Part shown: in pieces, positions 3,288 to 43,378 of the stretch
Numbering within the stretch: the first letter of the stretch is position 1
How the letters are laid out: every line of letters starts with the position of its first letter
Assembly (NCBI GenBank): GCA_051294905.1
Contig: CM119382.1
Coordinates: 21,762,001 to 21,826,000 of the forward strand
Reading direction: 5' to 3'
DNA: 64,000 bases
Source of the DNA: Botryllus schlosseri
Lineage: Eukaryota
Program-made: the position numbers and the translations under genes
The notes under the pieces: generated by a model
What the model saw: only the letters and a program-made list of their open reading frames with translations
The model's database searches: none
What the model was told of the DNA's origin: nothing

Positions 3288-3691
3288 TCAGTACTTCTTC
3301 ATTGCCTCTTCGTAGACGACGTAATCGTCGTACATGACTTTCCGTAATTTAAGGACAGCTTTTTCATGAAGAAAGTCCTTGGTTTTAGTTCTTGTTTTAT
3401 TTGGCGCAGCGGAATTTTTCATTTCCTGCCAGGTTTTCACAGCCCCTCCGAAGAAATCCGAAATGATGGTTTCAAACAAGCTCAGCGTGCCTTCGATCTC
3501 TTTAGTCAGTCCTATAACTAAATAGATATCGCGAATGCGTTTCTTGGCTAGTTCCACTCGATCTGGCGAAGTCGAATCGTGGCAAACCGGATCGAATCGA
3601 CAAAAATAGTTCGTATAATATTGTGTAATAATTAAGTCGTTTCAAAACGCTTCCTCGTTCGTTACGCATTTGTTGATGTGGATCTAGCATT
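3288..3691 (-). pseudogene. 3' half of a uronyl-2-/heparan-sulfate-2-O-sulfotransferase-like (Sulfotransfer_2) pseudogene
   Basis: Minus frame reads INKCVTNEEAF*NDLIITQYYTNYFCRFDPVCHDSTSPDRVELAKKRIRDIYLVIGLTKEIEGTLSLFETIISDFF...YDDYVVY, collinear with the UST/HS2ST C-terminal half as I recall it (DINEC..YFCG.C..ALERAK..VG). In-frame TGA at 3642-3644. Runs up to the insertion point. Confidence 0.8.
3686..3691. repeat. Left target-site duplication AGCATT
   Basis: Identical hexamer at 18357-18362 directly after the right terminus. Confidence 0.95.
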
Positions 3692-4027
3692 AGTAGTATG
3701 AGTAATGGGCGATTTGCCCGCATGCACCCTATTTACTTAAACAAACAAGAATTATCAATATAATAAACAGTGAAGGAATTAGCTCATTCTCAGTTTTGCA
3801 GCAATACTGGAGGGGAATTCCCTTCTGACTGTGCGGCAATTAAAAAAGGGGGAATAATTACAGATAGAGAGAAAACGAACAAGGAATCTGGATTGACCTT
3901 TGTACTCAGACATGAGACTGGAGTACTTCTCCTTGTACTTTTCCACTCGCCTCCTGATTATAATACATTGTAATTTTACTGTATTTTTCCACGATTCACA
4001 GCTGACTTCGGTCGTACACGACGGTGA

Positions 4028-4411
4028 TCATAGTTGCCTGCCCTGACCTGTTGTTCCGTGGTCCAATTTCGTGGCTTGGGAACAATAACCCGTAAAACTG
4101 GTTGACTTGTTATTCCGCGGTTGATTCATTTTCGTGTACGGTGGGTCATAGGAATAATTGTCGGTCGTGACGTAAGTATAGTTTTCTTCTGATCTGTGAG
4201 ATCCTGGTGCGTGTTTTAGGTGTCCATACGTTCGGCAGTGTAAGGTGACGCTTGTGGTCTGTCTCATACTGTCGTACCCGCTTGCTTTGTTGTTCAGCCA
4301 GACAGTAACGAGAAATGATCTGTTATTATTATAAATATGTGTGTCATTTCGAGTCATACCGAGAATCAGAATGAATGTCCTAGTAGAAATTTGTATTAAG
4401 CGACCCGACAT
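4028..4411 (-). CDS. Hypothetical 127-aa subterminal ORF, left-arm copy
   Basis: ATG-initiated and open in both arms despite 8 substitutions and an in-frame 6-bp indel. No recognisable domain. Confidence 0.3.
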   Translation of the reverse strand: MSGRLIQISTRTFILILGMTRNDTHIYNNNRSFLVTVWLNNKASGYDSMRQTTSVTLHCRTYGHLKHAPGSHRSEENYTYVTTDNYSYDPPYTKMNQPRNNKSTSFTGYCSQATKLDHGTTGQGRQL

Positions 4412-4796
4412 AGATTAGCTTAAATAAAGTAACATTATGAATATAATAAGTAATTAAACAAATAGCTGATTCTCAATTTTGCTCGCATCAACGTGTTAAC
4501 AACCAGTATTACGTACCTAGTATTCGGTGCAAGCAACAAATGTGGCTGTTCCATACCTATACCGCGTTCTAGCGTCTTCATAAGGACAGACAGTCCCAAC
4601 CAAACAATGTATTTATGATGGGTTCTTTTACTGCTTCACGTCTGGTCAAGCGTAATCGTGCCGGTGCTTGTAAATGATATACAATTTACCGCGGCATATT
4701 ATTTTTGTATGCTGTATAATGTACACGAGGTACAACTTGAATCGATCAGTTGGCGAACTAATGCTTTACCCGTCTGTACGATCGATCGCGAGCTCA

Positions 4797-5085
4797 CCAC
4801 GCACTTGTCGGTCGAGAGCGACTCATTTCGCTATAGACAATCAGTTGTGTTCGCGTGTACCGTAACATATCCTCAACACTTGTTATGCCAACACCTCCAA
4901 GCATATTTACAATATCATGCTAAGGAACTATTGCTTCGGCAGCCACGCACTGTCGTTCGAATTCGACTAATTTCGCTGCAGACAATCAGTTGTGCTCGTG
5001 TGTGCCGTAACATATCCTCAACACATGTTATGCCAACACCGCCGAGCATATTTGCAGGATCATACTACGGATATATTGACTCGAC
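4797..5085. repeat. Diverged tandem duplication, unit about 145 bp (mirror at about 16957-17245)
   Basis: GACAATCAGTTGTG at 4836 and 4981; CGTAACATATCCTCAACAC.TGTTATGCCAACACC occurs twice. Confidence 0.85.
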
Positions 5086-5443
5086 AGAGTGTTACTATAG
5101 AAATTAAACATGGAATGGCAACGATCAATTTTGCAGCTTCGCTCCGCTTCGCCGGGGCTGGAATGAAGAATTGTTTTGCGTAAGCGACTGTAGGATTTCT
5201 GGCAACCCAAAAGCAATCTTCCCGAGCGCAGAAATTATTGAATCTGGTCTTGATCGAAAGCTACTGTTGCACCGATTCCGAAAATATAAATTAAAATATT
5301 GATCGTGTGCTGATCCACCTAGAATATGTCCTCCAAGTCTGAAATATCGGCATTGTTTAGAACAATCGGGTAACCGCAACACAATTGCCATAACAATGAC
5401 CCGTTGGGATCAGTGGGCTGACCTTATTTGGCTGAAACGCGCT

Positions 5444-5938
5444 CGGTGGTGCAATAATGACAATGAATTGTGGTAGATCATACGTTATGCGATCTATAGC
5501 CTGAGGTGAGGTGTAAAGTAGAGGGGGAGATTTCGAAATCGGAATCCACTGCGACTATAGGATTGCAAAATCAAAGTCCAAAAAATCCGACTGGCACGTA
5601 AAGTACTGGTTTCTCCATATATTAGGCTGGGTAAAATGTAACATAAATCCAACTCTCAAAGGCACTGCTGTAAGGGGAGTGTCGTTGTACATTAATTTGC
5701 GTACAGCGAAACTTTGTATGCGGTGGTGCAATAATGAGGATGAATTGTGCCAGATCACGTGATGCAATCTAGCCTGCTTTCGGTGAGGTGTAAAGATGAG
5801 CGGGGAAATTTCGAAATCTGACTCCACCCGGACTCGGGTTGCTAAATCAAAGTCCAAAAAATCCGGCTGGCTCGTAAAGTCCTGTTATTTCCACATGTTG
5901 TGAGGGTAAAATATAGCATAAATCCGACTCTCAAGGCC
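5444..5938. repeat. Diverged tandem duplication, unit about 277 bp (mirror at about 16105-16598)
   Basis: CGGTGGTGCAATAATGA at 5444 and 5721; downstream blocks GGTGAGGTGTAAAG, TTTCGAAATC and AATCAAAGTCCAAAAAATCCG recur at the same spacing. Confidence 0.85.
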
Positions 5939-7370
5939 ATTTGGCTGCATCCAGACTGGCTTCGCTGAAAACTGATGAAATCTGGGCCGGGTCCGGAGAT
6001 GTTTCGTGACCTCCTCCGGCCAGACAAGATTGTTCTGCTGTAATATAGGTGTCGTTGTATAATAATTTACGTACAAGGAGACTTGGTATCGACCCTTTGG
6101 CGGAATTCTGTTTGGTTCGTCTGTACAGGTGTTATTAGTGCGATCAGATTTGGCACCTCAAGGAGTATATTGGTAAAAATCACACAACGATGACAATAAC
6201 TTTACCGGTCAACATGCGGTCAACGGTCAACGATGCGGTGTGATGTACGTAAATCAGCTGTGATCAATCGAGCGTGACACAATCGCTGTCAGTCATCAAT
6301 CTGCGACTTGACAAAACTCGCGTTTTCGGGTTGACAGCAACACATTGCGATATATTTGATGTCCCCGTCGACCCTCCTATTTTAATAGGGTTACCATGCG
6401 GCCTCATTTAGGGGAGCATATGTCCTCCATTTCCCAGATATGTCACCCAATTCACCTAAATGTACTCTCTTTCTGTCAGTTTGTCCTCCTTGTTAGCTCA
6501 ACATTTCCAAAAAAACACCACGAGTAACGCAAAATGTGGGCCTAGATTACGAAAAGTCGGGTATTTACGTAGCCAAATCGGGAAAATGACCCTATGATGG
6601 TATTGTGCAGGCTATTACGTGGATACGTGGGCGTGTGTAAACATGTGAATAGTAAAAGCGCCCCAAACTACCGTTACATGAAAAAAGATCGAGCGCACTC
6701 GACCATGACGGGGTATACCCACCTTAGTACAGCCAAATGATCCCATGTCGTACCGGGAATAGCCGAGGTGGTGGTACATCATTCTCACAAAATGTACTTT
6801 GGAACGCGTGTGAAATCGACATCGTCCGCTACTCGACTGACGCAAGTCGCCACTGCAGTCCCTCTCTGTGTATACACAATGTGCTGAGCACTGCAGATCC
6901 AGACGAGACTACGCATTCTGGCGAGGTTATCGAGATAGCTGGAGCGATTTACAACACATGCTACATTTACTTCAAACGGAATGACAAAATATGGTTTTGG
7001 AGTACTCAAGTAGTTTTAAGGGAATGTCAGTATCGTGATATCGCTTTCTATCCTAATTATAAAAGAGTAGGTCCCCATAAAACTGTCGAGCTCAAGCACG
7101 TTGGTAACTGTGATAGTAGACAAAACTGACTCGAGTACCTCAGAAATAGTGACTGTATTTCGTTGCTGACCACGCGCCTGCTTATTCACACCGACTGACT
7201 CTCCTAGTAAGCAACTGCGCCCCCGTCATCTTCTTATTGCCCAAATAATTTTACAATTCACGAAATCCAATCTCATTTGTCGATAGTTTTATCAGCACAA
7301 AAGTCACAGTTACACAAGTCTCGTAAATAGGTGTCGATACACTACAATCGTTTTATCGCCACTATTCAAC

Positions 7371-8549
7371 TCATAGCCCGATCACACGACTGACGTTTCC
7401 GCAGATCAATTTTTGACGTTTGATCAACTCTTGCCTGGTTTTGGGGTTTCTAATCACAGGGCGATTGAGATTCGGGTGTGTCTTTTCGATACGTTGCGCA
7501 AACTCGATACCTTTCGTTCGGAGTACGTATTCACACTGCGGAAACCATTTTGCATGTTCTGTCCAAACCTCGTCTTCACGGTCCCAACGAAGCCCGCCGT
7601 CACAGTAAAAGCATTTGGTTCTGTCCGAATCAACGTAGTAAAACCCCGCTTTTGCTAACTGTTCAACACTAGCTCTAATTTTATTCGGTTCCCAGCCCTT
7701 GTCGAACGTTGCGATTCTTTTTGACAACGACGACATGAGAGGGTTCACGGGTTTAAGACAAGGAAATAGTTGCTCAAGACATCGCTTTTCGTCCTCGGAG
7801 GGTTCCTCTGGTTCTTGCAGATGTAAAGTGAGACGTCGTATTTTGTCGTCAAGCAACTTATCCAAATTGTCTCGTTCGTACTCGGTTAACGCCAAATTCC
7901 CCGAATCGTCGCCACGTGCGAAACAACAATCCGGGCGATACGTCAAGTGTATTTCAGATATATCGTCTGTAGGCCTCCAATTGCGTAGAACGCCGGAGCA
8001 TTTGAAGCACTGCGTTCTGTCCAGGTCACCGAGGTAGAATAAACCTTGTTTTGCCAACTCGCCGACCGCCCGTGGTATGGGATAGCTGGGCCATTTCTCA
8101 AAGGTTTCGCGACGCTTCGACTCCTTTCGCAAGTCGAGATTCCTAACCCGATACTCGTGCTCTTGATCAACGATATTCGCAAAGTTGATGTTGGCGTTTC
8201 CAGCGGCTTTAAACTGTCTCAGTAAACTTTTGAAATTCGATTTCACAATAGGTATGTTCAACGCGTCTCGTACACAATTCGCGTCATGACGCCGTGCACT
8301 CGACCCGGTCCATCTTTCGAGGTACGCACTGCACCCAAAGCATTTGATTTTGTCTTCAAATCCTAGCCAGTAGTATCCCTCAGACGCTAAATCGGTGCGT
8401 GTTGCGTATGATACTTTAGAGAATTTGGCGAACGTGGCGAGTCTGTATAATTCAGTGCGGTGTGAACCGGAAGCGATATACACTCGTTTCTGTCCGGGCG
8501 GATCAGAGTATCTCTCCATTGACGATATGCCAAGCTCTTTCATAAACAT
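7371..8549 (-). CDS. iap: Inhibitor of apoptosis protein, 3 BIR domains, no RING, intronless (392 aa), left-arm copy
   Basis: Three BIR repeats with zinc ligands: RLATF..GYY..KCFGC..H..C; RRETF..GLFY..QCFKC..W..H..C; RIATF..LAKAGFYY..KCFYCDGGL.W..WTEHAKWFPQC. Confidence 0.95.
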   Translation of the reverse strand: MFMKELGISSMERYSDPPGQKRVYIASGSHRTELYRLATFAKFSKVSYATRTDLASEGYYWLGFEDKIKCFGCSAYLERWTGSSARRHDANCVRDALNIPIVKSNFKSLLRQFKAAGNANINFANIVDQEHEYRVRNLDLRKESKRRETFEKWPSYPIPRAVGELAKQGLFYLGDLDRTQCFKCSGVLRNWRPTDDISEIHLTYRPDCCFARGDDSGNLALTEYERDNLDKLLDDKIRRLTLHLQEPEEPSEDEKRCLEQLFPCLKPVNPLMSSLSKRIATFDKGWEPNKIRASVEQLAKAGFYYVDSDRTKCFYCDGGLRWDREDEVWTEHAKWFPQCEYVLRTKGIEFAQRIEKTHPNLNRPVIRNPKTRQELIKRQKLICGNVSRVIGL

Positions 8550-10247
8550 GGAGTACTAAGACAGAGCTTTTTGTGTCTAAACCTGTACCATAGCTCACAC
8601 ATATATATTCCTAGTTTATCCTTGCGAGCTCTATCGATTACTGGTTGGTTGTACTTTTATGTGAGATTGACAACCGTTGGCTGTCGCTATTGCACCATTT
8701 ATATATGTGTTATACCAGGAGCGGTCAACTTCTGCAGCCCGCGGGGCGTGTATAGCATAATTAGGTACTCGGTGGTGCGAATTGCTGAATCGATACATTA
8801 TTCGACCACCGATCAGCATATGCCAGGAATAAATCGTATTCAATCAATGTATTTTAACAACAGCAATGTCAATGCAAAGCCGTATCTCGCCGATATTAAC
8901 GAGGACAAAGTGGATTTGAGAACAGTATTTTTATACAGGCACCGCCATGTCTGCTTCTCTCTCACGGTGCAATACTTAAATAAGATTTCATAGTGGTCTA
9001 TAAGCCCGATACCCTAAATTGACAGAGACATCAGTTCAATAAAGTTGTTTTCTAACGACATTACAGAGAACAACGCGTACCAGTAAACACAAACCGAATT
9101 GTCCCACTGTTGCGTCAATTCACCGCCGACTCAGTATGAGACACTCTCGACCAGCGAATGTACATTAGGCAACCGAAACACGTGACCTTGCGAAGGGGGG
9201 TGTTTTCGATAACACCGATACGGCAACTTAATTCTTTCTACTGACAATGTGATGGAGAGCGGCTTAATTCATCAGACAAAGACTGGAGGCAACAATAACT
9301 AGCAAACACAAATCTAATGGCCACACCGACATTCACAGGTATTCGATAGACCCGAAAATACCAACGTCACCCAACTGCTGTAATGACACGGGTACGATGC
9401 GGGGTACGAAGCATTTTGAACGGTGTTGCTCAGTTGCGGTTCTTGGCCTTCCAAGACCTCTGTTAGCATCAGTCTATCTCACTGTTTGGAGTACCAATGC
9501 CAAACGTCGTAATAGTGGTCACTCGGTCATGTGTAGAATATAGAAATTGACGCCTGGCCTATTTGCAAGACCTCATGGCTTTGGCAAACTTACTAAAGCG
9601 GAAATTCACAAAGTCACTTGCGTACGTGCTTTCATGCCTTTGAATGTTTGTTATCATCGAGTCTGGTCATAAATAGACATGGGGACAAATTTGATGCGTT
9701 CAGCACAATATACGTTTACCACATCTCATTCCGGACCGTAACCGATCGTTTACCGCACCCTCTATATGGCAAACGTCGCCTTTGCTCATAGGTAAGCCGA
9801 TGATCTGTGAAAACACATGCGCTAACGTGCCATTTCGTTATTCCTTCAACGTCACATGACCGCCTATGAAGGCTTTTTGGGTACCCACCAATACAGTGTT
9901 GAAACGTGATCCATAGGGACCCCACTGCGTGCTATACGCCTAAATAAATATGTTTACTCGAGTATACACCTGGTGTGGAGCAGTGAAGTGGATGCAGAAA
10001 GTAAATTAGACAACGCAAACCAGTTGACAACGTCGATTAATATACGGGGGTTGATACATTTTGTCAAGTGACTTTTGAATGAGTGTTATTTGTTTGGTGT
10101 TTGATGGATAAGATTGTATTCAATCATAAACTACTAATATACTTCTTGTGGTGCTAAACCTGATTATACAGATGAATCAGACAGTATTCCGCCAATTGGG
10201 AGTAGTTGCCCGTCGTCGTGATTGACCTTCTAGTTCGCGGTGGTAAC

Positions 10248-11795
10248 GAAGAATGTATAACAGAAAGTGTAAATCGTACAATGACGACAACTAACTGTTG
10301 TCAGTCGCCCACAACAATACAGCTAACCAGTAATCTATAGAGCTTTCACGAATAAACTAGGAGTATAAACGGTTAGTCCTAACTTGTCGTTCCACGACTG
10401 AATAATCCAATTTCATCGCGACGGGGATCGGTAGTAGTTGCCCGTACGATATAGTGAATCAATCTCAAAACCTAATGCAATCCTAATTCAGCAAAATTTC
10501 ACAAATACTTTTTTTTTTCTAAATCCTAATCAATGCTCATCTCTGGCGTATACGTACAAGTTTTGTCAAAACAACAGATTGATGGAGCGTGGCTTACATT
10601 GATTGCGACACACGATCACAGCTTCTTCTGGTGGAATTTTTCAATGGTAAATTCAAGGCTAGGTCGAGGGGGTCAAACAGCATTTCTCTCACGGTAGCAC
10701 TCCGCCGAGTCAATACGTCCATAGTATGATATTTGTCGCAAGTATGTTTTGTTGGGGGTGCTGAGGATATTTTGCGGTACGCGTTTTTTCACAGGTTGCA
10801 AGTTACGATAGGGGAAGACGTATTTTTATATTTATACCGCTAATTTCATTAGATTGACTAGAAAACAATGTCATTTCTTCTGACTCGACTACCGAAATAC
10901 CCGTCAATTACTTGTGTTGTGCGAGTTAACTAAATGAAAGGTCACTCACCGAAATCGACCAGACCTACATTTCGCGTTATTCGTGGTGTTTTTTGTTATT
11001 TTAGGCTGAAAATAGGGAAAAATTTACAAAAAAGGAAGACATTTGGGCGAAGGTTGTACATATCTAGGAGAAGGAGGAGGACTTTGGTAACCCTATAAAT
11101 ATTGATCGATGTGAACATCAGCTGTATCGCATTGCTGTCAACCCGCTCCAATATGCGAGTTTAGTCAAACAGGAGATTGACGACTGACACCGTTTGTGTC
11201 ACATTCGATTGATCACAGCTGGTTTGTGTACATCACACCCCATCGAAATTACAAGCATTCGAACGAGTGATGACCGTTAGGTTTGCTGACAGTTAAAGTT
11301 GTTATCGTTGTGAGATGGATAAGATTTTGCCAATATACTTCTTGTGGTGCTAAACCCTACTGCAATAACAACACATGTACAGACAAATCAAACAGAATCC
11401 CGCCAGTGGTTCGATACAAAGTTTCACTGTACACGCAAATGAATATGCAACGAAACCCCGCATATCGTGTAATGACAGCAGAATCATTTTGCCTGGACGG
11501 AGGTGGTCACGAATCGGTTCCGTACCCCCGAATTTCATCGGTTTTGAGTGAAATCGGACTGGATACGGCCACGTATCTTTGAGAGTCAGTCATATACTAG
11601 ATTCTGTCCTCACAATATGTCGGAATAACAGGACTTTGCGTACCAGCCTGGATTTACCCCAATTCGCAGTTCAAACAGGCTTTAGGTACACCCGATAACG
11701 CGCGTCCACCACTCCAAACACATAGTTACGGGGTATGGCGGGGACCCGGAAACTCGGGGCATAGCTTATTAGTAATTTTACGCGATCATTTTTTT
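10248..11795. other. Unique 1548-bp loop (spacer) of the palindrome, containing diverged copies of arm sequence
   Basis: Symmetry stops after GGTAAC at 10247 and resumes at GTTAC 11796. 10960-11655 resembles 15500-16185; 10255-10368 resembles 13328-13439. Confidence 0.85.
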
Positions 11796-13337
11796 GTTAC
11801 TACCGCGAACTAGAAGGTCAATCACGACGACGGGCAACTACTCCCAATTGGCGGAATACTGTCTGATTCATCTGTATAATCAGGTTTAGCACCACAAGAA
11901 GTATATTAGTAGTTTATGATTGAATACAATCTTATCCATCAAACACCAAACAAATAACACTCATTCAAAAGTCACTTGACAAAATGTATCAACCCCCGTA
12001 TATTAATCGACGTTGTCAACTGGTTTGCGTTGTCTAATTTACTTTCTGCATCCACTTCACTGCTCCACACCAGGTGTATACTCGAGTAAACATATTTATT
12101 TAGGCGTATAGCACGCAGTGGGGTCCCTATGGATCACGTTTCAACACTGTATTGGTGGGTACCCAAAAAGCCTTCATAGGCGGTCATGTGACGTTGAAGG
12201 AATAACGAAATGGCACGTTAGCGCATGTGTTTTCACAGATCATCGGCTTACCTATGAGCAAAGGCGACGTTTGCCATATAGAGGGTGCGGTAAACGATCG
12301 GTTACGGTCCGGAATGAGATGTGGTAAACGTATATTGTGCTGAACGCATCAAATTTGTCCCCATGTCTATTTATGACCAGACTCGATGATAACAAACATT
12401 CAAAGGCATGAAAGCACGTACGCAAGTGACTTTGTGAATTTCCGCTTTAGTAAGTTTGCCAAAGCCATGAGGTCTTGCAAATAGGCCAGGCGTCAATTTC
12501 TATATTCTACACATGACCGAGTGATCACTATTACGACGTTTGGCATTGGTACTCCAAACAGTGAGATAGACTGATGCTAACAGAGGTCTTGGAAGGCCAA
12601 GAACCGCAACTGAGCAACACCGTTCAAAATGCTTCGTACCCCGCATCGTACCCGTGTCATTACAGCAGTTGGGTGACGTTGGTATTTTCGGGTCTATCGA
12701 ATACCTGTGAATGTCGGTGTGGCCATTAGATTTGTGTTTGCTAGTTATTGTTGCCTCCAGTCTTTGTCTGATGAATTAAGCCGCTCTCCATCACATTGTC
12801 AGTAGAAAGAATTAAGTTGCCGTATCGGTGTTATCGAAAACACCCCCCTTCGCAAGGTCACGTGTTTCGGTTGCCTAATGTACATTCGCTGGTCGAGAGT
12901 GTCTCATACTGAGTCGGCGGTGAATTGACGCAACAGTTTGACAATTCGATTTGTGTTTACTGGTACGCGTTGTTCTCTGTAATGTCGTTAGAAAACAACT
13001 TTATTGAACTGATGTCTCTGTCAATTTAGGGTATCGGGCTTATAGACCACTATGAAATCTTATTTAAGTATTGCACCGTGAGAGAGAAGCAGACATGGCG
13101 GTGCCTGTATAAAAATACTGTTCTCAAATCCACTTTGTCCTCGTTAATATCGGCGAGATACGGCTTTGCATTGACATTGCTGTTGTTAAAATACATTGAT
13201 TGAATACGATTTATTCCTGGCATATGCTGATCGGTGGTCGAATAATGTATCGATTCAGCAATTCGCACCACCGAGTACCTAATTATGCTATACACGCCCC
13301 GCGGGCTGCAGAAGTTGACCGCTCCTGGTATAACACA

Positions 13338-13345
13338 TATATAAA
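13338..13345 (+). promoter_or_regulatory. Candidate TATA box upstream of the right-arm IAP (mirror at 8698-8705)
   Basis: TATATAAA about 150 bp upstream of the ATG at 13494; position and sequence only. Confidence 0.3.
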
Positions 13346-13493
13346 TGGTGCAATAGCGACAGCCAACGGTTGTCAATCTCACATAAAAGTACAACCAACC
13401 AGTAATCGATAGAGCTCGCAAGGATAAACTAGGAATATATATGTGTGAGCTATGGTACAGGTTTAGACACAAAAAGCTCTGTCTTAGTACTCC

Positions 13494-14672
13494 ATGTTTA
13501 TGAAAGAGCTTGGCATATCGTCAATGGAGAGATACTCTGATCCGCCCGGACAGAAACGAGTGTATATCGCTTCCGGTTCACACCGCACTGAATTATACAG
13601 ACTCGCCACGTTCGCCAAATTCTCTAAAGTATCATACGCAACACGCACCGATTTAGCGTCTGAGGGATACTACTGGCTAGGATTTGAAGACAAAATCAAA
13701 TGCTTTGGGTGCAGTGCGTACCTCGAAAGATGGACCGGGTCGAGTGCACGGCGTCATGACGCGAATTGTGTACGAGACGCGTTGAACATACCTATTGTGA
13801 AATCGAATTTCAAAAGTTTACTGAGACAGTTTAAAGCCGCTGGAAACGCCAACATCAACTTTGCGAATATCGTTGATCAAGAGCACGAGTATCGGGTTAG
13901 GAATCTCGACTTGCGAAAGGAGTCGAAGCGTCGCGAAACCTTTGAGAAATGGCCCAGCTATCCCATACCACGGGCGGTCGGCGAGTTGGCAAAACAAGGT
14001 TTATTCTACCTCGGTGACCTGGACAGAACGCAGTGCTTCAAATGCTCCGGCGTTCTACGCAATTGGAGGCCTACAGACGATATATCTGAAATACACTTGA
14101 CGTATCGCCCGGATTGTTGTTTCGCACGTGGCGACGATTCGGGGAATTTGGCGTTAACCGAGTACGAACGAGACAATTTGGATAAGTTGCTTGACGACAA
14201 AATACGACGCCTCACTTTACATCTGCAAGAACCAGAGGAACCCTCCGAGGACGAAAAGCGATGTCTTGAGCAACTATTTCCTTGTCTTAAACCCGTGAAC
14301 CCTCTCATGTCGTCGTTGTCAAAAAGAATCGCAACGTTCGACAAGGGCTGGGAACCGAATAAAATTAGAGCTAGTGTTGAACAGTTAGCAAAAGCGGGGT
14401 TTTACTACGTTGATTCGGACAGAACCAAATGCTTTTACTGTGACGGCGGGCTTCGTTGGGACCGTGAAGACGAGGTTTGGACAGAACATGCAAAATGGTT
14501 TCCGCAGTGTGAATACGTACTCCGAACGAAAGGTATCGAGTTTGCGCAACGTATCGAAAAGACACACCCGAATCTCAATCGCCCTGTGATTAGAAACCCC
14601 ATAACCAGGCAAGAGTTGATCAAACGTCAAAAATTGATCTGCGGAAACGTCAGTCGTGTGATCGGGCTATGA
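13494..14672 (+). CDS. iap: Inhibitor of apoptosis protein, 3 BIR domains, no RING, intronless (392 aa), right-arm copy
   Basis: Same ORF as 7371-8549. Two differences found: 14602 (Lys/Ile) and 14210 (synonymous Arg). Confidence 0.95.
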   Translation: MFMKELGISSMERYSDPPGQKRVYIASGSHRTELYRLATFAKFSKVSYATRTDLASEGYYWLGFEDKIKCFGCSAYLERWTGSSARRHDANCVRDALNIPIVKSNFKSLLRQFKAAGNANINFANIVDQEHEYRVRNLDLRKESKRRETFEKWPSYPIPRAVGELAKQGLFYLGDLDRTQCFKCSGVLRNWRPTDDISEIHLTYRPDCCFARGDDSGNLALTEYERDNLDKLLDDKIRRLTLHLQEPEEPSEDEKRCLEQLFPCLKPVNPLMSSLSKRIATFDKGWEPNKIRASVEQLAKAGFYYVDSDRTKCFYCDGGLRWDREDEVWTEHAKWFPQCEYVLRTKGIEFAQRIEKTHPNLNRPVIRNPITRQELIKRQKLICGNVSRVIGL

Positions 14673-17630
14673 GTTGAATAGTGGCGATAAAACGATTGTA
14701 GTGTATCGACACCTATTTACGAGACTTGTGTAACTGTGACTTTTGTGCTGATAAAACTATCGACAAATGAGATTGGATTTCGTGAATTGTAAAATTATTT
14801 GGGCAATAAGAAGATGACGGGGGCGCAGTTGCTTACTAGGAGAGTCAGTCGGTGTGAATAAGCAGGCGCGTGGTCAGCAACGAAATACAGTCACTATCTC
14901 TGAGGTACTCGAGTCAGTTTTGTCTACTATCACAGTTACCAACGTGCTTGAGCTCGACAGTTTTATGGGGACCTACTCTTTTATAATTAGGATAGAAAGC
15001 GATATCACGATACTGACATTCCCTTAAAACTACTTGAGTACTCCAAAACCATATTTTGTCATTCCGTTTGAAGTAAATGTAGCATGTGTTGTAAATCGCT
15101 CCAGCTATCTCGATAACCTCGCCAGAATGCGTAGTCTCGTCTGGATCTGCAGTGCTCAGCACATTGTGTATACACAGAGAGGGACTGCAGTGGCGACTTG
15201 CGTCAGTCGAGTAGCGGACGATGTCGATTTCACACGCGTTCCAAAGTACATTTTGTGAGAATGATGTACCACCACCTCGGCTATTCCCGGTACGACATGG
15301 GATCATTTGGCTGTACTAAGGTGGGTATACCCCGTCATGGTCGAGTGCGCTCGATCTTTTTTCATGTAACGGTAGTTTGGGGCGCTTTTACTATTCACAT
15401 GTTTACACACGCCCACGTATCCACGTAATAGCCTGCACAATACCATCATAGGGTCATTTTTCCGATTTGGCTACGTAAATACCCGACTTTTCGTAATCTA
15501 GGCCCACATTTTGCGTTACTCGTGGTGTTTTTTTGGAAATGTTGAGCTAACAAGGAGGACAAACTGACAGAAAGAGAGTACATTTAGGTGAATTGGGTGA
15601 CATATCTGGGAAATGGAGGACATATGCTCCCCTAAATGAGGCCGCATGGTAACCCTATTAAAATAGGAGGGTCGACGGGGACATCAAATATATCGCACTG
15701 TGTTGCTGTCAACCCGAAAACGCGAGTTTTGTCAAGTCGCAGATTGATGACTGACAGCGATTGTGTCACGCTCGATTGATCACAGCTGATTTACGTACAT
15801 CACACCGCATCGTTGACCGTTGACCGCATGTTGACCGGTAAAGTTATTGTCATCGTTGTGTGATTTTTACCAATATACTCCTTGAGGTGCCAAATCTGAT
15901 CGCACTAATAACACCTGTACAGACGAACCAAACAGAATTCCGCCAAAGGGTCGATACCAAGTCTCCTTGTACGTAAATTATTATACAACGACACCTATAT
16001 TACAGCAGAACAATCTTGTCTGGCCGGAGGAGGTCACGAAACATCTCCGGACCCGGCCCAGATTTCATCAGTTTTCAGCGAAGCCAGTCTGGATGCAGCC
16101 AAATGGCCTTGAGAGTCGGATTTATGCTATATTTTACCCTCACAACATGTGGAAATAACAGGACTTTACGAGCCAGCCGGATTTTTTGGACTTTGATTTA
16201 GCAACCCGAGTCCGGGTGGAGTCAGATTTCGAAATCTCCCCGCTCATCTTTACACCTCACCGAAAGCAGGCTAGATTGCATCACGTGATCTGGCACAATT
16301 CATCCTCATTATTGCACCACCGCATACAAAGTTTCGCTGTACGCAAATTAATGTACAACGACACTCCCCTTACAGCAGTGCCTTTGAGAGTTGGATTTAT
16401 GTTACATTTTACCCAGCCTAATATATGGAGAAACCAGTACTTTACGTGCCAGTCGGATTTTTGGTCTTTGATTTTGCAATCCTATAGTCGCAGTGGATTC
16501 CGATTTCGAAATCTCCCCCTCTACTTTACACCTCACCTCAGGCTATAGATCGCATAACGTATGATCTACCACAATTCATTGTCATTATTGCACCACCGAG
16601 CGCGTTTCAGCCAAATAAGGTCAGCCCACTGATCCCAACGGGTCATTGTTATGGCAATTGTGTTGCGGTTACCCGATTGTTCTAAACAATGCCGATATTT
16701 CAGACTTGGAGGACATATTCTAGGTGGATCAGCACACGATCAATATTTTAATTTATATTTTCGGAATCGGTGCAACAGTAGCTTTCGATCAAGACCAGAT
16801 TCAATAATTTCTGCGCTCGGGAAGATTGCTTTTGGGTTGCCAGAAATCCTACAGTCGCTTACGCAAAACAATTCTTCATTCCAGCCCCGGCGAAGCGGAG
16901 CGAAGCTGCAAAATTGATCGTTGCCATTCCATGTTTAATTTCTATAGTAACACTCTGTCGAGTCAATATATCCGTAGTATGATCCTGCAGATATGCTCGG
17001 CGGTGTTGGCATAACATGTGTTGAGGATATGTTACGGCACACACGAGCACAACTGATTGTCTGCAGCGAAATTAGTCGAATTCGAACGACAGTGCGTGGC
17101 TGCCGAAGCAATAGTTCCTTAGCATGATATTGTAAATATGCTTGGAGGTGTTGGCATAACAAGTGTTAAGGATATGTTACAGTACACGCGAACACAACTG
17201 ATTGTCTATAGCGAAATGAGTCGCTCTCGACCGACAAGTGCGTGGTGAGCTCGCGATCGATCGTACAGACGGGTAAAGCATTAGTTCGCCAACTGATCGA
17301 TTCAAGTTGTACCTCGTGTACATTATACAGCATACAAAAATAATATGCCGCGGTAAATTGTATATCATTTACAAGCACCGGCACGATTACGCTTGACCAG
17401 ACGTGAAGCAGTAAAAGAACCCATCATAAATACATTGTTTGGTTGGGACTGTCTGTCCTTATGAAGACGCTAGAACGCGGTATAGGTATGGAACAGCCAC
17501 ATTTGTTGCTTGCACCGAATACTAGGTACGTAATACTGGGGGTTAACACGTTGATGCGAGCAAAATTGAGAATCAGCTATTTGTTTAATTACTTATTATA
17601 TTCATAATGTTACTTTATTTAAGCTAATCT

Positions 17631-18020
17631 ATGTCGGGTCGCTTGATACAAATTTCTACTAGGACATTCATTCTGATTCTCGGTATGACTCGAAATGACA
17701 CACATATTTATAATAATAACAGATCATTTCTCGTTACTGTCTGGTTTGACAACAAAGCAAGCGGGTTCAAGTACGACAGTATGAGACAGACCACAAGCGT
17801 CACCTTGCACAGCCGAACGTATGGACACCTAAAACACGCACCAGGATCTCACAGATCAGAAGAAAACTATACTTACGTCACGACCGACAATTATTCCTAT
17901 GACCCACCGTACACGAAAATGAATCAACCGCGGAACAACAAGTCAACCAGTTTTACGGGTTATTGTTCCCAAGCCACGAAATTGGACCACGGAACAACAG
18001 GTCAGGGCAAGCAACTATGA
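17631..18020 (+). CDS. Hypothetical 129-aa subterminal ORF, right-arm copy
   Basis: Mirror of 4028-4411 with two extra codons (TTC AAG). No recognisable domain. Confidence 0.3.
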   Translation: MSGRLIQISTRTFILILGMTRNDTHIYNNNRSFLVTVWFDNKASGFKYDSMRQTTSVTLHSRTYGHLKHAPGSHRSEENYTYVTTDNYSYDPPYTKMNQPRNNKSTSFTGYCSQATKLDHGTTGQGKQL

Positions 18021-18356
18021 TCACCGTCGTGTACGACCGAAGTCAGCTGTGAATCGTGGAAAAATACAGTAAAATTACAATGTATTATAATCAGGAGGCG
18101 AGTGGAAAAGTACAAGGAGAAGTACTCCAGTCTCATGTCTGAGTACAAAGGTCAATCCAGATTCTTTGTTCGTTTTCTCTCTATCTGTAATTATTCCCCC
18201 TTTTTTAATTGCCGCACAGTCAGAAGGGAATTCCCCTCCAGTATTGCTGCAAAACTGAGAATGAGCTAATTCCTTCACTGTTTATTATATTGATAATTTT
18301 TGTTTGTTTAAGTAAATAGGGTGCATGCGGGCAAATCGCCCATTACTCATACTACT

Positions 18357-18362
18357 AGCATT
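18357..18362. repeat. Right target-site duplication AGCATT
   Basis: Identical to 3686-3691. Confidence 0.95.
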
Positions 18363-18804: not shown

Positions 18805-19752
18805 CAGTGCTGGGATGACTCGAGTCATGACTTGACTCGAGTCAGACTCGAGTTACCTTTTTTGTATGACTTGACTTGACTCGAGTCAATTTGCTAAAAT
18901 GACTTGACTTGACTTGACTCGGCGTATCAGAAATGTCGATTGATTCGTGACTCGGAGTAAAATTGAAGAGTCAATTTCAAGTCATCAAGTAATCGGTGTG
19001 GACAAAAATTACCCAATCTTGTATATGTTCGGATTGTTCGCGGAACGCTGGTGTAACCCGTGATATCGACCAATCATTCAATGATCGTGCGTTTTACTGA
19101 GCCTCCATTGTTCTCTCTCAAATAAATTGACAGCAAACGAAGTGATCGAAGCTACAGTGTACATTGTCGTAAACTAGTATAGTAAAGTAATTTGAGAGCA
19201 AAATGTCTATTTCTGTTCTCTGTTCTTACCTTAACCAAGCCTTTTGTTTTATTGAAATAGAATTCGAATATAGTTTTTGAAGTCCTCAACCATTAGCACA
19301 GCTCGAATTGCATCATATTAGTTTGTAAATGGGTAATGAATTGCAACTATTAACAACTGGTAACTATAAACTGATGAGGCTATGAAATTACTTACGTAGC
19401 TCCGCAGTTCTAGGTAAATGTGAGCGATACAGCGCCTTCTTACGTGTATAATAAACTCTATATTCGTTCATCGGTTCAAAATCAATGACCACCCAATCTG
19501 TATTTCCGACAGCTAGCAAAATGCAATGACGTAATCATGCCTCAGACTTCAAAAAGGCAACTTGACTTGAATTGTGACTTGACTCTTGACTTGACTTGAC
19601 TCGACGTGACTCGAGTAACCTTCAAAAATCGAGTGACTTGACTCGACTCGAGTCACCTTCAAAAATCGATTGACTTGACTTGACTCGAGTCAAAATTTGC
19701 AATGACTCGAAATGACTCGTGATTCGAAAGTAGTGACTTGATCCCATCACTG
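18805..19752. mobile_element. hAT-type MITE, family A (GACTTGACTCGAGTC subterminal arrays)
   Basis: TIR CAGTGCTGGGAT...ATCCCATCACTG; exact 8-bp TSD GTACAATA. Confidence 0.92.
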
Positions 19753-20470
19753 GTACAATATACATTGTACCTCGTTAGGTGACCGCTCTATGCGAAGGAA
19801 AGCGGTATATATAGGTTGTGGGTATCCGACAATGAAAGTAAAACGGGAATCAAACAGTAAGAAAGCCTTATCTTGCCGGATGGTTACGTGTATATTGATA
19901 ATAACAGCTCATATCTAATTTCACCATTTCTCCTGAATCAGTTAAAAACGGAATATCTGCGTGAAAAGCATATTTAGGCAAAGTTAAAACCAAACTATAT
20001 TTAATATTTTCCGATTTATTTGATATGATAGTGACAGTAAACATACAAAAGTTTAATTAGTCTGCCGATATGAATTAATAAATTGATTCGCTATGAATGT
20101 TACTATATCAGAAAATTCGTTTCGCGTCTGTGACTAATAAATCTAACAGACTAAGGGGTGTAAGTAACGGGTTAGATGAAAGTTACTGCCAGGGGGGAGA
20201 GAAAATCCTTTATTGAATCAACATCGATTATGGAGGTTTTTTGAAATATATACAGCTGTTTTCAAATCTTCCTCGCGTCCCGCGCGATTCAATGTCCATA
20301 AATGTTTTGATTTAAACAGGGACACCTATCCTCTAAGAAAAAATAAGGCAAAATTCATGGAGATAGGTATATAATCGCCGTTCATTTCGACGCCACAACA
20401 TCAATACATGTGAAGTGTGCGCAGACGCGCAACTCCACGAAGTGCGTTGCCGAAAATCGTGGCCGAATAG

Positions 20471-34300: not shown

Positions 34301-37300
34301 GCGGATCGGAAGCCGCAGTTTGCCCACCTCTTGCATATAGGCGAAGGCAATATCTCCGAAGATTTGTAACAATACCAAATATGAATGGATCAAGTAGACA
34401 TATGGATGGTTATTTAGGTACCGCAGCTGGCTTTTCTCACACGGATATCAATCAGTCCGAGGTAGACTTCGGCAACTATAGATAATTCTAGTTGTATAAT
34501 TAGACGAACTTACAGCGAAACGCTAGTAATCTGATTCTAATCTACTTTGTGAAATGTTTCAATTTCATTTTAATTCTAATCCAATTTCTCGTTTTCCTGA
34601 AAACGATACAGGAAAACTGTATAGCGTGAAACGACCCAAGCTTGGTGTACTGACATTTGTCATTGTCATACCTCGTGATAAAGAACTCTGATTTGATATA
34701 AATTGAAGACGATTTTTGTTGTTTAGAGTATTAGCGAATGTAGTAATACTAAATCTAATTCTTATGTATAGAAAAGATGTGTAGCTCTAATTGTAATTCC
34801 AATCTAATTAGGAAAAGCTAAAAAATGTCCAATTGTTCAACCCTTGTCCAAGGGATATGTGAAGGATATGTAGCGGTATGGATTTGGATTACAGATTTAA
34901 CCGTTACTTGGGTTTGCGATTAGCGTTAGAAGATATGGTCAATTATGGAGTTGATAGTGTCAAGTTTCATAAAATGTGGCGGATTCAGCTAAAATGTTAA
35001 ATTGATGGGGGTCACGTTTGCGGTGCTCACGGTCACACTTATAATAGAGGTGAAACTCTGACTATTTGCTAAATCCCAAGAAGCACCATATTTAATTATT
35101 TGCCAAGAAATCATGCCACTTAAAAGGTCTAAAGGTGTAGTACACATAATAATGGTGCGTACATACGAAACAATTTCCAATACAAAGTGGGGGGAGGGGC
35201 TCAGCAGCAAGGCGGAGTTTCAAAATAGCTTGATTAGGATACATCGTATTTTATCTCTGTTTGCACATTTATAAATCAGAAGTACATAATTATATTTTTG
35301 AGTGTTTCTTATTATCTATGAAGTAATTATATGCAATAATTCAAACTCCGACTCGAACAATGCGGTGTACTACGTCTTGATTCACGAGAACGCTCGTAGA
35401 TCATTTACCAATACCTGCCATTTGTGGGATGACGGTTGTCATTCGGCATTCAATAGCACCCCGTTGTGAAATTATTAATGTATAGAGTTAGATTAATGAT
35501 TGGATAATCTCATTATAATTAAATAGATCCTCACCACTTGGACGGTTACCGCATGTACAGCAGCTTCCTAGCGCAACTGAACAACGAATCGGTGGTGGAG
35601 TATAACTCCTTTCGAAATTCATGGAAGACGAACTTTCTGCGGTTGAAACGACTTGTCTTGGTGGGTGGACCAGATGATGGAGTGATCACGCCATGGCAAA
35701 GTTCGCAATTTGGTGCTTTTGACTCTGATGAAAACGTCGTTCCCATGAGAAACTTACAGGTATTGCATCAAAACTTATTTTAATAGCATCGATATCGTAG
35801 TCTTTTCGAAATTAACTTGATATGTAGTGACTTGATTAAACTATGTAGCCTACGTCTGCGCGAGTGCGTACATTAATAAAATGTTTATTTTTTTAGAATA
35901 CACCCGCGTGTACGTCAAATGTGTTAGATGTAAAACTACTCCTTGATTTATTTCATATTTTTTGAAGTAGAGGCTAGTGTTTGGGCAGATTCCTATCACT
36001 ATTGTGATAGAAATTATCATAACAGACCGGCGATGCTGCCAAAGTATCACCAGCACCGTAACTGCCGCACCCCAAACCCCCAAATTGGGAGGGGCCCGAG
36101 CTCGAAGGGGGCCCAAATTTTTTTCGTGAATTAGGATAAATCATAGAGAATTTTTTGAAAATTTATGCAATTTTTTCAAAAATTTTTCGCGCAGGGCGCG
36201 AATTCATGTATAGCTATTAGGGTTGTCCATAATTTGGAAAATCTCACAAATGCTGCGTATCCATGTCTCATTCTATAGATTATTGATAAAAAAACGTCAA
36301 TGAGCCTGCAATAAGCTCACAGGAAAGTCGTTAAGATTTGTCTAAATGCGTTTGAAAGTGGCTGCCACAGAGTGGGCGTGGCTGCCACAGAGTGGGCGTG
36401 CCAGCGACCATAGAACGGCGAGAAGACTAGTAATCACGAAATTCCGTCTCATGATTGGTTAATCAGTTATGCTTGAATGATCGCGACCGCAGCAACTTGC
36501 TGATTACGTGCTTCTACTCTTCAAAGAAGTTTGCTAACGGCGATGATTCTGTAAGGGCATTGTAGGTTGGTGACTTAACAATAATATGTGACACCTGGTG
36601 ATTTAATGTTTTAGTTTAAAAGTCGGTTACGATAGGTTTATAGCAGCAATAGCCTATTGCAGACATGGCCGAGGTGTAACAGCGAATAATTGTGAACTTG
36701 TAGAAGTGAGTATAAATCCCAGAAGCATCTAGTCTAATATGCTTGCGATTACGCCGAGTCCTCCTGCTTCCTGGGTGCAGGTAAAGTATTAGCCATCGCC
36801 AAACTGGTGCAGCACAGCATGTGAGACGGATGCTGCGGGGCACAATCCTGTATGCTTATAAGATGATATGTGGACCGACCAGGTAGCTTACATTGGAACT
36901 CTGAAGAAGTGTAACTACCGCATCGATTAAATGCATTTATATATCCATGTCTGGTTTGATTCAAACATTAGTCGTGATGCAGCCAGTGATGATCCATGAT
37001 TCATTTAGGAGAGGCTAAGCTCTTCAAGCAAACTGGAGTTTTGCTGACCCTACCAGCATAGCCTGTGCTTACCTATAGATCTCTTTCTGTGGTATGATTG
37101 AGAACTTTGACAGCACTTACGGGTAGATTCATTATGCTGTTAGAATCGGACAGGTGCCACGCATAAACGGACGATTCAGCCCATCCTTAGAGCATTCAAG
37201 ACCTAAATTATATACCACGACCAGAGCCTAATAAGATCAGACAAAGTATGATCACTGTTAAGATTTATATTTGAAATCAGTGATGGTACATCCCTTCTGA

Positions 37301-40300
37301 AACTAGAAATTAGTACGCTGCTTGCATAAGTGCCATTGCAATGTTTCTTCGTGTGTTTCAGTGCTTTCCCTCGATGAAAGCAAGGTACACAGACTACAAC
37401 GGTTACCTTCACAATAAGCCAGTCATGTTTCAAACGTTTTTGTGAAGTAGCTATCTCTTGTTCGTTCTGTAGTATGTTACTAAACATATCCCGAATCAAT
37501 CTCAAATCATCATCTGCGGACCAAGCTACAATGCGCTTACAGATTCACCGCCGTTAGAAGACTCCTCGAACAGCTGATCAGCAAGCCGTCACCGTCGTAA
37601 TCATTCAGGCATAGCCGCTTACCCAATCAAGCGCCGTGATTTCATGATTACTAGTCTTCTCGCCGTTCTATGGTCGCTGGTACGCCCACTCTGTGGCAGC
37701 CACTTTCAAACGCATTCAGACAAATCTTAACGACTTTCCTGTGAGCTTATTGCAGGCTCATCGACGTTTTTTTATCAATAATCTATAGAATGAGAAATGG
37801 ATACGCAGGATTTGTGAGATTTTCCAAATTATGGACAACCCTAATAGCCATGTATCTTCATTTTTGGGTACTGGGCCATTACCGCGCCACGACTCACCAA
37901 GACATACAATCAAGTTTTAGGCCATATAACATGCGACTCCAAGAAGTCTGCCAGAACGATCGGCATCGAGAAAACCTTGGCCGAAAGGGTCTATGCCCTT
38001 ATGCTGACCAAAGACTTCGTTATATATACAAAATACATACAGTTTTAATTGTCCATAGGCGCCTAAATGACTGGCGCCGAATGTTCCTGTCTTTGCAATC
38101 TGAACCTCACAAGACAAATACCATCCCGCCGGGAAAAATTTATGCCAGTGAAGAAATACCAATTTGAAATCGTGTGCGTTTCTTAGTTTAGAAGCCTACG
38201 TTTGGGCGATTCTATATTTTTTGATATAGCAGACTGGAAGTTACGAAATAACATCATGTAACGAAGTCATATCAACGTTCAACGGGTCCGCCCGCCCGAA
38301 GATGCTTAATTATTATTTACGGGCCCTCCCGTTTTCAAGACACTTCACTCAGCTCTACCGATAAATCTAATTACGTGAGCAGAGAGGACAATAAATTGAT
38401 AGCATAATATATATGCAATCGCCGATCTGATTGACCGATTTTATCATAAATTATCGGAAATTTTCGCGCTTGGCGCTGGCTCACAATACAGTAAAAATGA
38501 TTTCGTGACAAACGCGAACAACGTGATGGAGGGGTCGTTTGATCACCCTGTGGGAGCCCAAGGCCCACGTTTTTGGGGGCCTGACGAGGTGCTGTTTCGT
38601 TCCTACCAACGAGTATAGGCCCGAAGATGTTTAATTATTATTGAGTGGTCCTACCTTTTCAAACACACCTCACTCAGCTCTACCGGCAAATCTGATTACG
38701 TGAGCAGAGAGAAGATAAAAATTGATGATAATATATATGCAATTCCTGATCATACTGACCGATTCAGTCATTAATTGTAGAAATTTCCCGCGCTTCGCGC
38801 GCTTAGGCGACAAAAGCTGATTCCCTACACAAACTCCCAACGCATATCATAAATAGCGGTAAACAGGGCATCGGCGGAGGGTGGTCTGGGGCGCGAAGCC
38901 CCCAGAAGTTCGGTCTATATTCCTATGGGGGCCCACGACCAAAGTTTTTTTGGGGGGCTGGCGAAGTGCTGTTACGACCCTGGGTATCACGATATCAAGG
39001 TAATAGTGTGAAAGCTGCATACATTTACACAAGGGGTCGCCAACTCAAAACGGGTCGAGAGCCACTTTTCAAAATTCGTAGAGGCCGCGGCCGAATGACT
39101 TCAGTATCAAGATAAAAAATAGGCAACGCAGTATAACAACCACGTATTGATAACTGTATACGTCAGTACAACGCTGTGCTCTCTAACGTGAGCGACGGGC
39201 ATAGTTACTACCAAAGAAATAATATTTCATTTAGGAAACACAAACACAACAAAAATATCATGATCATCACTTCCATTCCATTTTGAACTATGAGCTGCGC
39301 ACGATACCTGACAACACTCTTCGGCAACTAAAGCATAGGGGTGGCCAGCCATTTTTCTATTCACAGCCGCATGTCAATTATTTATGTATAGTCGTAATGA
39401 ACTAACTGGAGGCCAAGTATCCACTTTGAACTGTCCATGTCCATTGCCGGTAAACTCCGGACTGATCTATTTAGTCATATCGGCTTAATATGCGCACCGA
39501 TATCGTCAGTAGTCATGTTTTGAATAGCCACAGGGATTGGCTTTATGGACGCGCTAAGCGCGAAAATTTTGTGATACTCACGAGTGAATTTCGTTATTGA
39601 TATTAGTATAGTTTCACATATTACTATCAAATATTTATGCTTTTTCGTCCCATGTGATCAGATTCACCGGTAGAGTTGATGTAGGGATTGCGGTCTTCGA
39701 AAATTTAGGGAATTTATTAATGCTGCTGTGCATCTTTTTGGTGGGACAATTGTTATTAGCCTCATTTATTGCATGCTGTCATTTCTTGACCTCCCATCAG
39801 GATTGTCGCTAGGTATAGTGGGAACATATTGGATTCACCCAAACGTAGGCCTACCAGAAACAAATTTTCTTCGTGATGAGGAGAACACGATTACAAATTG
39901 GTGTTTCTTTATGGGGCACATCATTTTCCTCTGCTGTTCGCATCTGTACTGTAGGGCTCGGATTACAAAGGACACTACCATATCAAATAGAAAATCAACT
40001 CGCATTGAACAGCGCTTAGCACGAAGAAAACTTTAACAATAATTCAAACATCTGATGAAATAGGGAGCCAAATCAAAAATTGAAGTTGCATATTGACGGC
40101 CGCCAACACATCCTAGTCGAAATAAATGACGACGGCCGCTAAATTTTCATTCTACTGCCGGAGATTGGCCACCCCTGGACCAAAGAATCGATATGGGGTA
40201 AGCTAGGGTGAGGGATAGTGATATTAGACATAGGAAAATAGCTTACTTTGAACAACAACAAAAATACGTTTAAACTGAAATCAATTTCAGCGTTTTAAAA

Positions 40301-42456: not shown

Positions 42457-43378
42457 CAGTGTTGGGATGACTCGAGTCATGACTTGACTCGGGTCAGACT
42501 CGAGTCACCTGTTTCGTATGGTTTGACTTCACTCGAGTCACTTTGCTAAAATAACTTGACTTGACTTGACTCGGCTTATCAGAAATGTGGATTGACTCGT
42601 GACTCGGAGCAAGTATTCACGAGTCAATTTCAAGTCATCAAGTAATCGGTGTCAAAAAAATCACTGTATCTTGCATATGTTCGGATTTTTCGCAAAACGC
42701 TAGTGTAACTAGTGAGAACGATCAATCATTCAATGATCGTGCGTTTCACTGAGCCTACATTGTTCTCTTACAAATAAATTGAACGCAAACGAAGTGATAG
42801 AAGCTTACAGCTTACGTTGTCGTAAACTAGTAGTAAAGTAATAAAATAGAAAAATCTATTTTTATGCTCTCTGTGTTCTTACCTCAACCATTGGCGCAGG
42901 CTGGAATTGTATCTAATCAATTTGTAAATGGGTATTGTATTGCATCTTATCAATTCGTTTCTCTATTCTCTATTTTGGATGGTAAAGTGGTAACTATAAA
43001 CTGAGGCTATGCAATTACTTACTTAGTTTAACAGCTCTACGTATATGTGAGCGATAAAGCGCCTTCTTGCGTGTGTATTTAACTCTATATTCGTTCATCG
43101 GTTTGGAATCATGACCACTCAATCAGTATTTCAGACAGTTAGCAAAATGCAATGACGTAACCACGCCTCATACTTCGAAAAGGCAACTTGACTTGACTTG
43201 TGACTTGACTCGTGACTTGACTTGACTCGACTTGACTCGAGTCACCTCCAAAAATCGAGTGACTTGACTTGACTCGAGTGACCTTTGAAAATCGATTGAC
43301 TTGACTTGACTCGATTCAAAATGTGCAATGACTCGAAATGACTCGTGAGTCGAAGGTAGTGACTTGATCCCAACACTG
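42457..43378. mobile_element. hAT-type MITE, family A
   Basis: CAGTGTTGGGAT...ATCCCAACACTG; exact TSD GTAATCAT; collinear with 18805-19752. Confidence 0.92.

Follow-up and report, generated by a model that had tools for sequence, protein, structure and literature searches.

Positions 3692 to 18356 of a 64,000-nucleotide stretch of Botryllus schlosseri DNA (assembly GCA_051294905.1, contig CM119382.1, forward-strand positions 21,762,001 to 21,826,000; hereafter the window) are occupied by a 14,665-bp palindromic, non-autonomous element of Polinton (Maverick) type. We propose, with a probability of roughly 0.7, that this element is one inserted member of a family of very large, gene-poor palindromic Polinton derivatives that a helper Polinton replicates and integrates in trans, and in which one arm is re-copied from the other by way of a fold-back. 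The element is likely a satellite that has persisted for long, not a parent's broken half left by one event, and sequence shared with resident autonomous Polintons points to one of their families, E, as the likely agent of its mobilization in trans.

Self-BLAST of the window returns a single inverted match between 3691-10247 and 18357-11796 (6563 bp, 99.48% identity, E=0), confirming the statement of a first-pass annotation that the same 6.55-kb sequence stands at both ends. Base-level alignment resolves this match into a left arm at 3692-10247 on the forward strand and a right arm at 11796-18356 on the reverse strand, an inverted copy that is 99.5% identical; the arms pair until 10247/11796, mismatch further in and enclose a central loop at 10248-11795 (unstranded, like the element as a whole), so that the palindrome makes up about 90% of the element. 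Both ends start with AGTAGT and are flanked by an exact 6-bp target-site duplication, AGCATT, on the forward strand at 3686-3691 and 18357-18362, and the assignment to the Polinton type made at first pass holds on these grounds. The 6.56-kb arms exceed the limit of about 1.5 kb for terminal inverted repeats (TIRs) in autonomous Polintons and Mavericks. Besides an IAP gene present in each arm, the element has no open reading frame (ORF) longer than 170 aa, none of the half-element's 28 shorter frames scored above Pfam cut-offs, and genes for pPolB, integrase, ATPase, protease and capsid were not found among its ORFs and Pfam matches.

The element belongs to a spreading family with dozens of copies scattered through the genome, and the earlier idea of a single relic fixed in the germ line does not survive a search of the 495-Mb genome. 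Copies were picked as best matches to the window, which biases the sample toward young, similar ones; two earlier terminus-finding patterns missed many copies, and the counts given here are taken from a later analysis of 38 copies. Both termini were recognized in 30 of these, the other eight having no terminus pair in the sequence examined or having been missed by the pattern. The target duplication is an exact 6 bp in 25 of the 30 copies and carries at most one mismatch in 29. In 25 of the 30 the arms are 4 kb long or longer, and these long-armed copies measure 11.2-21.0 kb (median 14.4 kb; the longest contains a long interspersed nuclear element, LINE, in one arm), with a median arm divergence of 0.26% and loops of 485-3967 bp. 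Sibling foldbacks with different turn-around points, as predicted at first pass, therefore exist. The loop had been called unique, which proved incorrect: it has at least 52 matches in the genome (best 40 of 1057 candidates), including 15 other near-full-length copies at 91-94%, and it contains old, diverged inverted paralogues of the arm, both on the forward strand, at 11132-11655 (73% to arm segment 6340-5859) and 10255-10367 (78% to 8715-8604; both by self-BLAST). Ten unpaired IAP loci were checked as possible parents, of which nine are truncated, interrupted or deleted foldbacks and one is a chimera described below. The nearest sibling of the window copy (L148:1461-7881, 99%) is a collapsed, non-palindromic form in which one arm is fused to the last 191 bp of the opposite end. 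The 40 bases after AGTAGT (window 3698-3738) are hypervariable, with 25 distinct 45-mers in 30 copies; they resemble a few reshuffled blocks, and some entire variants are common to satellite and helper copies.

Within a copy the two arms are far more alike than arms of different copies. Divergence in the IAP block is 0.13% within copies and 2.63% between them, and in this block the nearest relative of each arm is its own partner in 16 of 16 copies (with one tie). The terminal 45 bases behave likewise, with a median of 16 mismatches between copies and two or fewer between a copy's own ends in 26 of 30. Of the variant clusters in the window copy that are absent from 101 other stretches, 18 are found in both arms, compared with 10 in the left arm only. 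The window copy's 24 arm differences comprise 19 that set a family allele against a private one and five in which neither allele was found elsewhere; none of the 24 had two common alleles, and recombination between siblings was rejected as their source. Taken together, these patterns support an ongoing, copy-back-like process by which each arm would be re-copied from its partner. One-arm insertions and deletions nevertheless persist, such as the LINE in one arm, as do the private arm differences of the window copy, and the persistence of one-arm insertions argues that equalization takes place mostly before insertion. Three locus pairs (L049-L050, L100-L101 and L041-L042) each combine one target duplication with two unlike arms or ends, which suggests recombination between molecules before insertion.

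The loop boundary is a secondary feature. The 10247/11796 junction is present at ten loci, the window and nine siblings, with different flanks, and the sequence that joins old loop to newly copied arm (11782-11795, forward strand) is common to those nine other loci. We used as a reference the loop of copy C13b, which is 1890 bp long and has no internal inverted match. Relative to it, 1728-1890 is duplicated and 1-208 missing in the window lineage; a second lineage, of three copies, shows duplication of 1-165 and loss of 1386-1890; and a third, represented by one copy, has 1-808 duplicated. Single-copy loop has thus become inverted duplicate, that is, arm, in three lineages and from opposite sides of the loop. 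In the window, the segment converted from loop to arm lies at 10092-10247 on the forward strand, which is single-copy loop in long-loop siblings and the apparent template of the extension, and its new inverted copy lies at 11796-11951 on the reverse strand, in place of about 200 bp present in those siblings. Judged from these alignments, the window boundary is an inherited extension of the arms, by about 160 bp, at the expense of an older loop of about 1.9 kb, of which the present loop is a remnant, and not the scar of a removal of core genes. Plain deletion is ruled out for the three extensions because it cannot turn single-copy loop into an inverted duplicate, while a strand switch onto a complementary copy, or a conversion that leaves the stem, can produce them. 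The sharp stop of symmetry reported at first pass stands at base level but is slightly eroded, as two siblings stay symmetric until about 10255 and a long-loop copy reveals that the T-run just inside the right junction derives from the arm template. Among eight siblings, divergence between copies is 1.4% for arms and 2.3% for loops; the window loop is an outlier (6.6% to siblings, versus 2.3% among them) and a mosaic by nearest neighbor, which weakens the proposal that loops simply mutate three times faster.

Autonomous Polinton families are present in the genome, with at least 78 polymerase and 112 integrase matches; a search with the PF03175 profile returned no polymerase, a false negative exposed when the genome's own polymerase ORF, used as query, gave the 78 matches. 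We compared 23 of the more than 100 polymerase or integrase (core-gene) loci with the half-element, and the family labels (A-G, E2) and copy names (C2c, C13b and the like) were assigned in this analysis. Family E alone shares appreciable sequence with the element. Its roughly 20 copies are 16.4-16.6 kb long, against the satellite median of 14.4 kb, and carry near-identical TIRs of about 290-370 bp that lack the element's IAP, so that autonomous relatives with 6.5-kb, IAP-bearing TIRs were not encountered. Similarity reaches 91% over 3739-3948 and 73% over the whole terminal region (3692-4385, forward strand; mirror copy at 17657-18356, reverse strand), which likely serves as replication origin and integrase site, and extends to about 1 kb in some siblings. 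Sharing with family E thus ranges over the terminal 0.25-1 kb, with termini 85-94% identical to resident Polinton ends, and satellite siblings hold pieces from both the left and the right ends of family E. Families A, B, C, D and G were discarded as parents, having no similarity to the element in the loci compared, as was E2, whose similarity is limited to about 110-150 bp of terminus.

The first-pass annotation had a polymerase start at one end of an autonomous parent, copy about 8.1 kb and switch back onto the nascent strand, and predicted a parent that continues collinearly through the loop into core genes. None of the 23 loci is collinear with the element, and its interior (4400-11795) matches nothing in them beyond short hits outside one element and a 60-bp piece that repeats the terminal motif internally. 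The loop-end motif has 28 matches: nine show the window junction, 18 proceed into about 200 bp of additional loop or into a variant of that segment, and one enters an internal duplication; none continues into core genes. Core genes are indeed absent from the element, but the accompanying claim that the half bearing pPolB, integrase and capsid was lost is not borne out at the loop end, where matches lead into more loop and a second arm. What remains of the copy-back proposal is the copying of arm from arm and the extension of arms in three lineages, rather than a single event from a collinear parent.

Only the chimera among the ten unpaired IAP loci has the predicted layout of arm, part of the loop and pPolB. 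It spans 15.6 kb (L150:723 to L151:6301), in which 7.57 kb at 99.7-99.9% identity to foldback copy C2c is followed by the polymerase-bearing left part of family E, with a 4-bp overlap at the joint and a single target duplication, TTCATT. Because it ends about 30 bases before loop sequence that C2c and long-loop siblings retain, it reads as a recombinant or derivative and not as the parent, and its one target duplication indicates that satellite and helper probably recombined before insertion. A second chimera (L064:4957 to L065:9092, 14.1 kb, duplication TGCGTC) joins the left half of a D-type Polinton to an arm of a D-matched foldback, of which it may be either parent or derivative. Helper copies, whose short TIRs lie 16 kb apart, also have ends that are copy-specific yet matching. 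Autonomous families here bear BIR genes near the left end, and one autonomous Polinton (L033:768 to L034:10000) carries accessory BIR, death-domain, ubiquitin-conjugating and caspase-domain genes.

Other autonomous families appear to have palindromic counterparts of their own. A second IAP foldback family (L168-L171, L155-L165; 72% protein identity, genes convergent) has 0.5-0.7 kb of E2 right-end sequence at both ends, and two of its copies have a center of about 30 bp, which also counts in favor of copy-back-like copying. In two further families (L172-L183), the first 1.3-1.5 kb of both arms matches the left end of a D-type or G-type Polinton, left ORF included, at 93-96% identity, and many such inverted pairs occur genome-wide. 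By sequence comparison, then, the notion that both ends come from one helper end is true for the tips of the sister families, while, in the loci compared, their interiors show no derivation from a helper. All foldback families measure 11-17 kb, near helper size; a packaging constraint has been suggested for Mavericks (PMC8097293), and by analogy one may act on foldback size.

The cargo of the element is an intronless IAP gene of 392 aa with three BIR domains and no RING match (ORF and Pfam), present at 7371-8549 on the reverse strand and again at 13494-14672 on the forward strand. Its closest database proteins are ascidian IAPs, at 45%, and it looks like a captured host gene; the BIR genes of helper Polintons are just 26-40% identical to it. 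The ratio of nonsynonymous to synonymous substitution rates (dN/dS) is 0.15 between the two IAP foldback families and 0.40 when pooled over ten non-independent sibling comparisons, values by which the gene is judged to be subject to purifying selection; an element with selected cargo is therefore not purely defective. Two single-cell RNA runs, sampled at 3-4% of each, contain a stranded pile of reads at the IAP 3' end, including reads with sibling alleles; stranded RNA piles lie at window positions 7392-7555, 8868-9031 and 10180-10507, the first of which fits the IAP 3' end. Roughly 75 of 106 IAP matches in the genome are at least 78% identical to the element gene and mostly form inverted pairs. 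Such elements provide a route for growth of a host anti-apoptosis gene family, at two IAP copies per insertion, and annotators should be warned that about 75 IAP-like matches in this genome are cargo.

In the cycle that we envisage, every enzymatic step of which we infer, helper pPolB would prime synthesis at the AGTAGT termini of a free, linear element, and the displaced strand would snap into a 6.5-kb stem. Strand switching or repair within the stem would equalize the arms and occasionally overshoot into the loop, shifting the boundary, and the 10247/11796 junction would be one such overshoot of about 160 bp, later inherited. Co-replicating molecules would recombine, refreshing satellite ends from the helper, and helper integrase would insert the product with a 6-bp duplication. 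A broader, more tentative possibility is a heritable class of snap-back satellites. Every autonomous family in this genome would then be matched by a palindromic dependant of about 14 kb, which would take up helper ends and renew them through recombination, attain a length that fits a capsid by doubling a 7-kb half through fold-back, travel inside helper particles, compete with the helper and carry anti-apoptotic cargo under selection. That Polintons replicate by way of a folded single strand has so far been deduced rather than observed, and the family would provide a genomic record of free, co-replicating molecules; if extrachromosomal, a 14-kb palindrome is expected to be detectable as snap-back DNA.

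Several observations weigh against a helper-driven, fold-back-equalized satellite. Four copies (C10d, C2a, C3c and C5u) have matching or near-matching duplications yet unlike arms or ends, so equalization does not always occur, and molecules also exchange sequence among themselves. The remaining loop variants mostly fit plain deletion, and microhomology at the extension junctions is weak, with roughly 4 bases in the second lineage and no clear case in the other two. The helper assignment draws solely on shared ends and one chimera, the core-gene comparison covers just 23 loci, and no free or hairpin DNA of the element was observed. Panhandles are a popular model for the restoration of terminal homology, although direct evidence for them is described as still lacking (PMC11886824).

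We consider a literal copy-back origin unlikely, in which an autonomous parent, collinear over about 8 kb and running on into core genes but now extinct or unsampled, was copied back once from one of its ends. The sister families, all three of which open both arms with one helper end (1.3-1.5 kb of left end with its ORF, or 0.5-0.7 kb of right end), would fit such an origin, as would BIR genes near the left end of autonomous families and chimeras of the predicted layout, and an ancient founding copy-back is possible. The turn-around point is secondary, however, no loop-end match enters core genes, and the loci compared show no interior similarity; moreover, family ends combine left and right subterminal helper pieces, the chimera, though 99.9% identical to a foldback copy, falls about 30 bases short of that copy's loop sequence, and helper BIR genes are only distantly similar to the element IAP. 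Also improbable, and slightly more so, is an ordinary long-TIR non-autonomous element whose arms have been kept alike after insertion by chromosomal gene conversion. Arm-to-arm conversion operates in Y-chromosome palindromes and plastid inverted repeats, boundary creep occurs in the latter, and the lower divergence between copies of arms than of loops would be expected from it. It is opposed by the persistence of one-arm insertions, deletions and private differences, by a junction that recurs at ten differently flanked loci and is hence older than insertion, and by the copy-specific, matching ends of short-TIR helper copies.

Foldback and Pack-MULE elements are known for very long TIRs and for capturing host genes, and the palindrome could in principle be a Foldback- or Mutator-like cut-and-paste element, or a host fold-back rearrangement, unrelated to Polintons. 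We regard this as very improbable: AGTAGT ends with 6-bp duplications are a Maverick signature (PMC8097293), and the identity of the termini to resident Polinton ends largely refutes it, while a local host rearrangement would not yield dispersed copies with their own duplications. An assembly artefact is the most remote of the explanations considered. Chimeric long reads can create long palindromes, and no sequencing-run contig covers the whole element; one run contig links the right terminus to the flank, but its 29 letters inside the element are too few to count as bridging. A real locus is indicated: the flanks differ and bear an exact duplication, the arms hold private differences, ten loci share one junction, and contigs from runs of four studies cover the arm and the loop.

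Elsewhere in the window, an ORF with a galactosyltransferase domain lies in the left flank of the element (700-1308). An unrelated 0.9-kb repeat with TGACT-rich subrepeats occurs in three copies (18805-19755, 42457-43381 and 46532-47408), and an inverted repeat pair at 36210-36571 and 37520-37851 (97% over 170 bp, about 1.6 kb apart) is possibly a small TIR element.

Non-autonomous Polintons are known as deletion derivatives, and like them the element has kept its ends and would need an autonomous partner. The zebrafish family Polinton-1N1_DR is a named example (PMC9341505). With Polintons and Mavericks as described in PMC8097293, PMC10748475 and PMC6431247, the element shares the AGTAGT ends (the signature being a 5'-(AGT)2 end motif with a 6-bp target duplication; PMC8097293), a size near 14-17 kb and termini in common with resident autonomous copies. 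It differs in lacking pPolB, integrase, ATPase, protease and capsid genes and in its 6.5-kb arms, reported TIRs being 46-1447 bp (PMC8097293) or 100-1500 bp (PMC10748475). Copy-back and snap-back defective viral genomes (PMC13506859) resemble it in their like ends, stem-loop or near-full palindrome, absence of replication genes and varied turn-around points, whereas the element is DNA, integrated, inherited and long-spreading, and is collinear with its helper at the tips only. As for membership in that class, complementary ends and varied break and rejoin points were found, and collinearity with a parent end was not, in the loci compared. Protein-primed strand displacement has been proposed to equalize ends in the panhandle repair of adenovirus and PRD1 (PMC11886824) and to give rise to long inverted repeats in protein-primed fungal plasmids (PMC1864894); the stem there consists of a short TIR or of flanking host DNA, and here it would be nearly the whole element. 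Accessory IAP genes of adintoviruses (PMC8502044) are likewise anti-apoptotic cargo on animal Polinton-like elements, while here the gene is duplicated, closest to ascidian host IAPs and carried on a palindrome that is probably helper-dependent. In a literature search whose scope lay outside Repbase reports, most subscription papers and supplements, we found no description of giant palindromic Polinton satellites, and prior description is possible. Set against non-autonomous Polintons that are deletion derivatives, the element is a variant form that is a palindrome over most of its length, has an interior for which the loci compared give no helper origin, and carries a gene that appears to be under selection.

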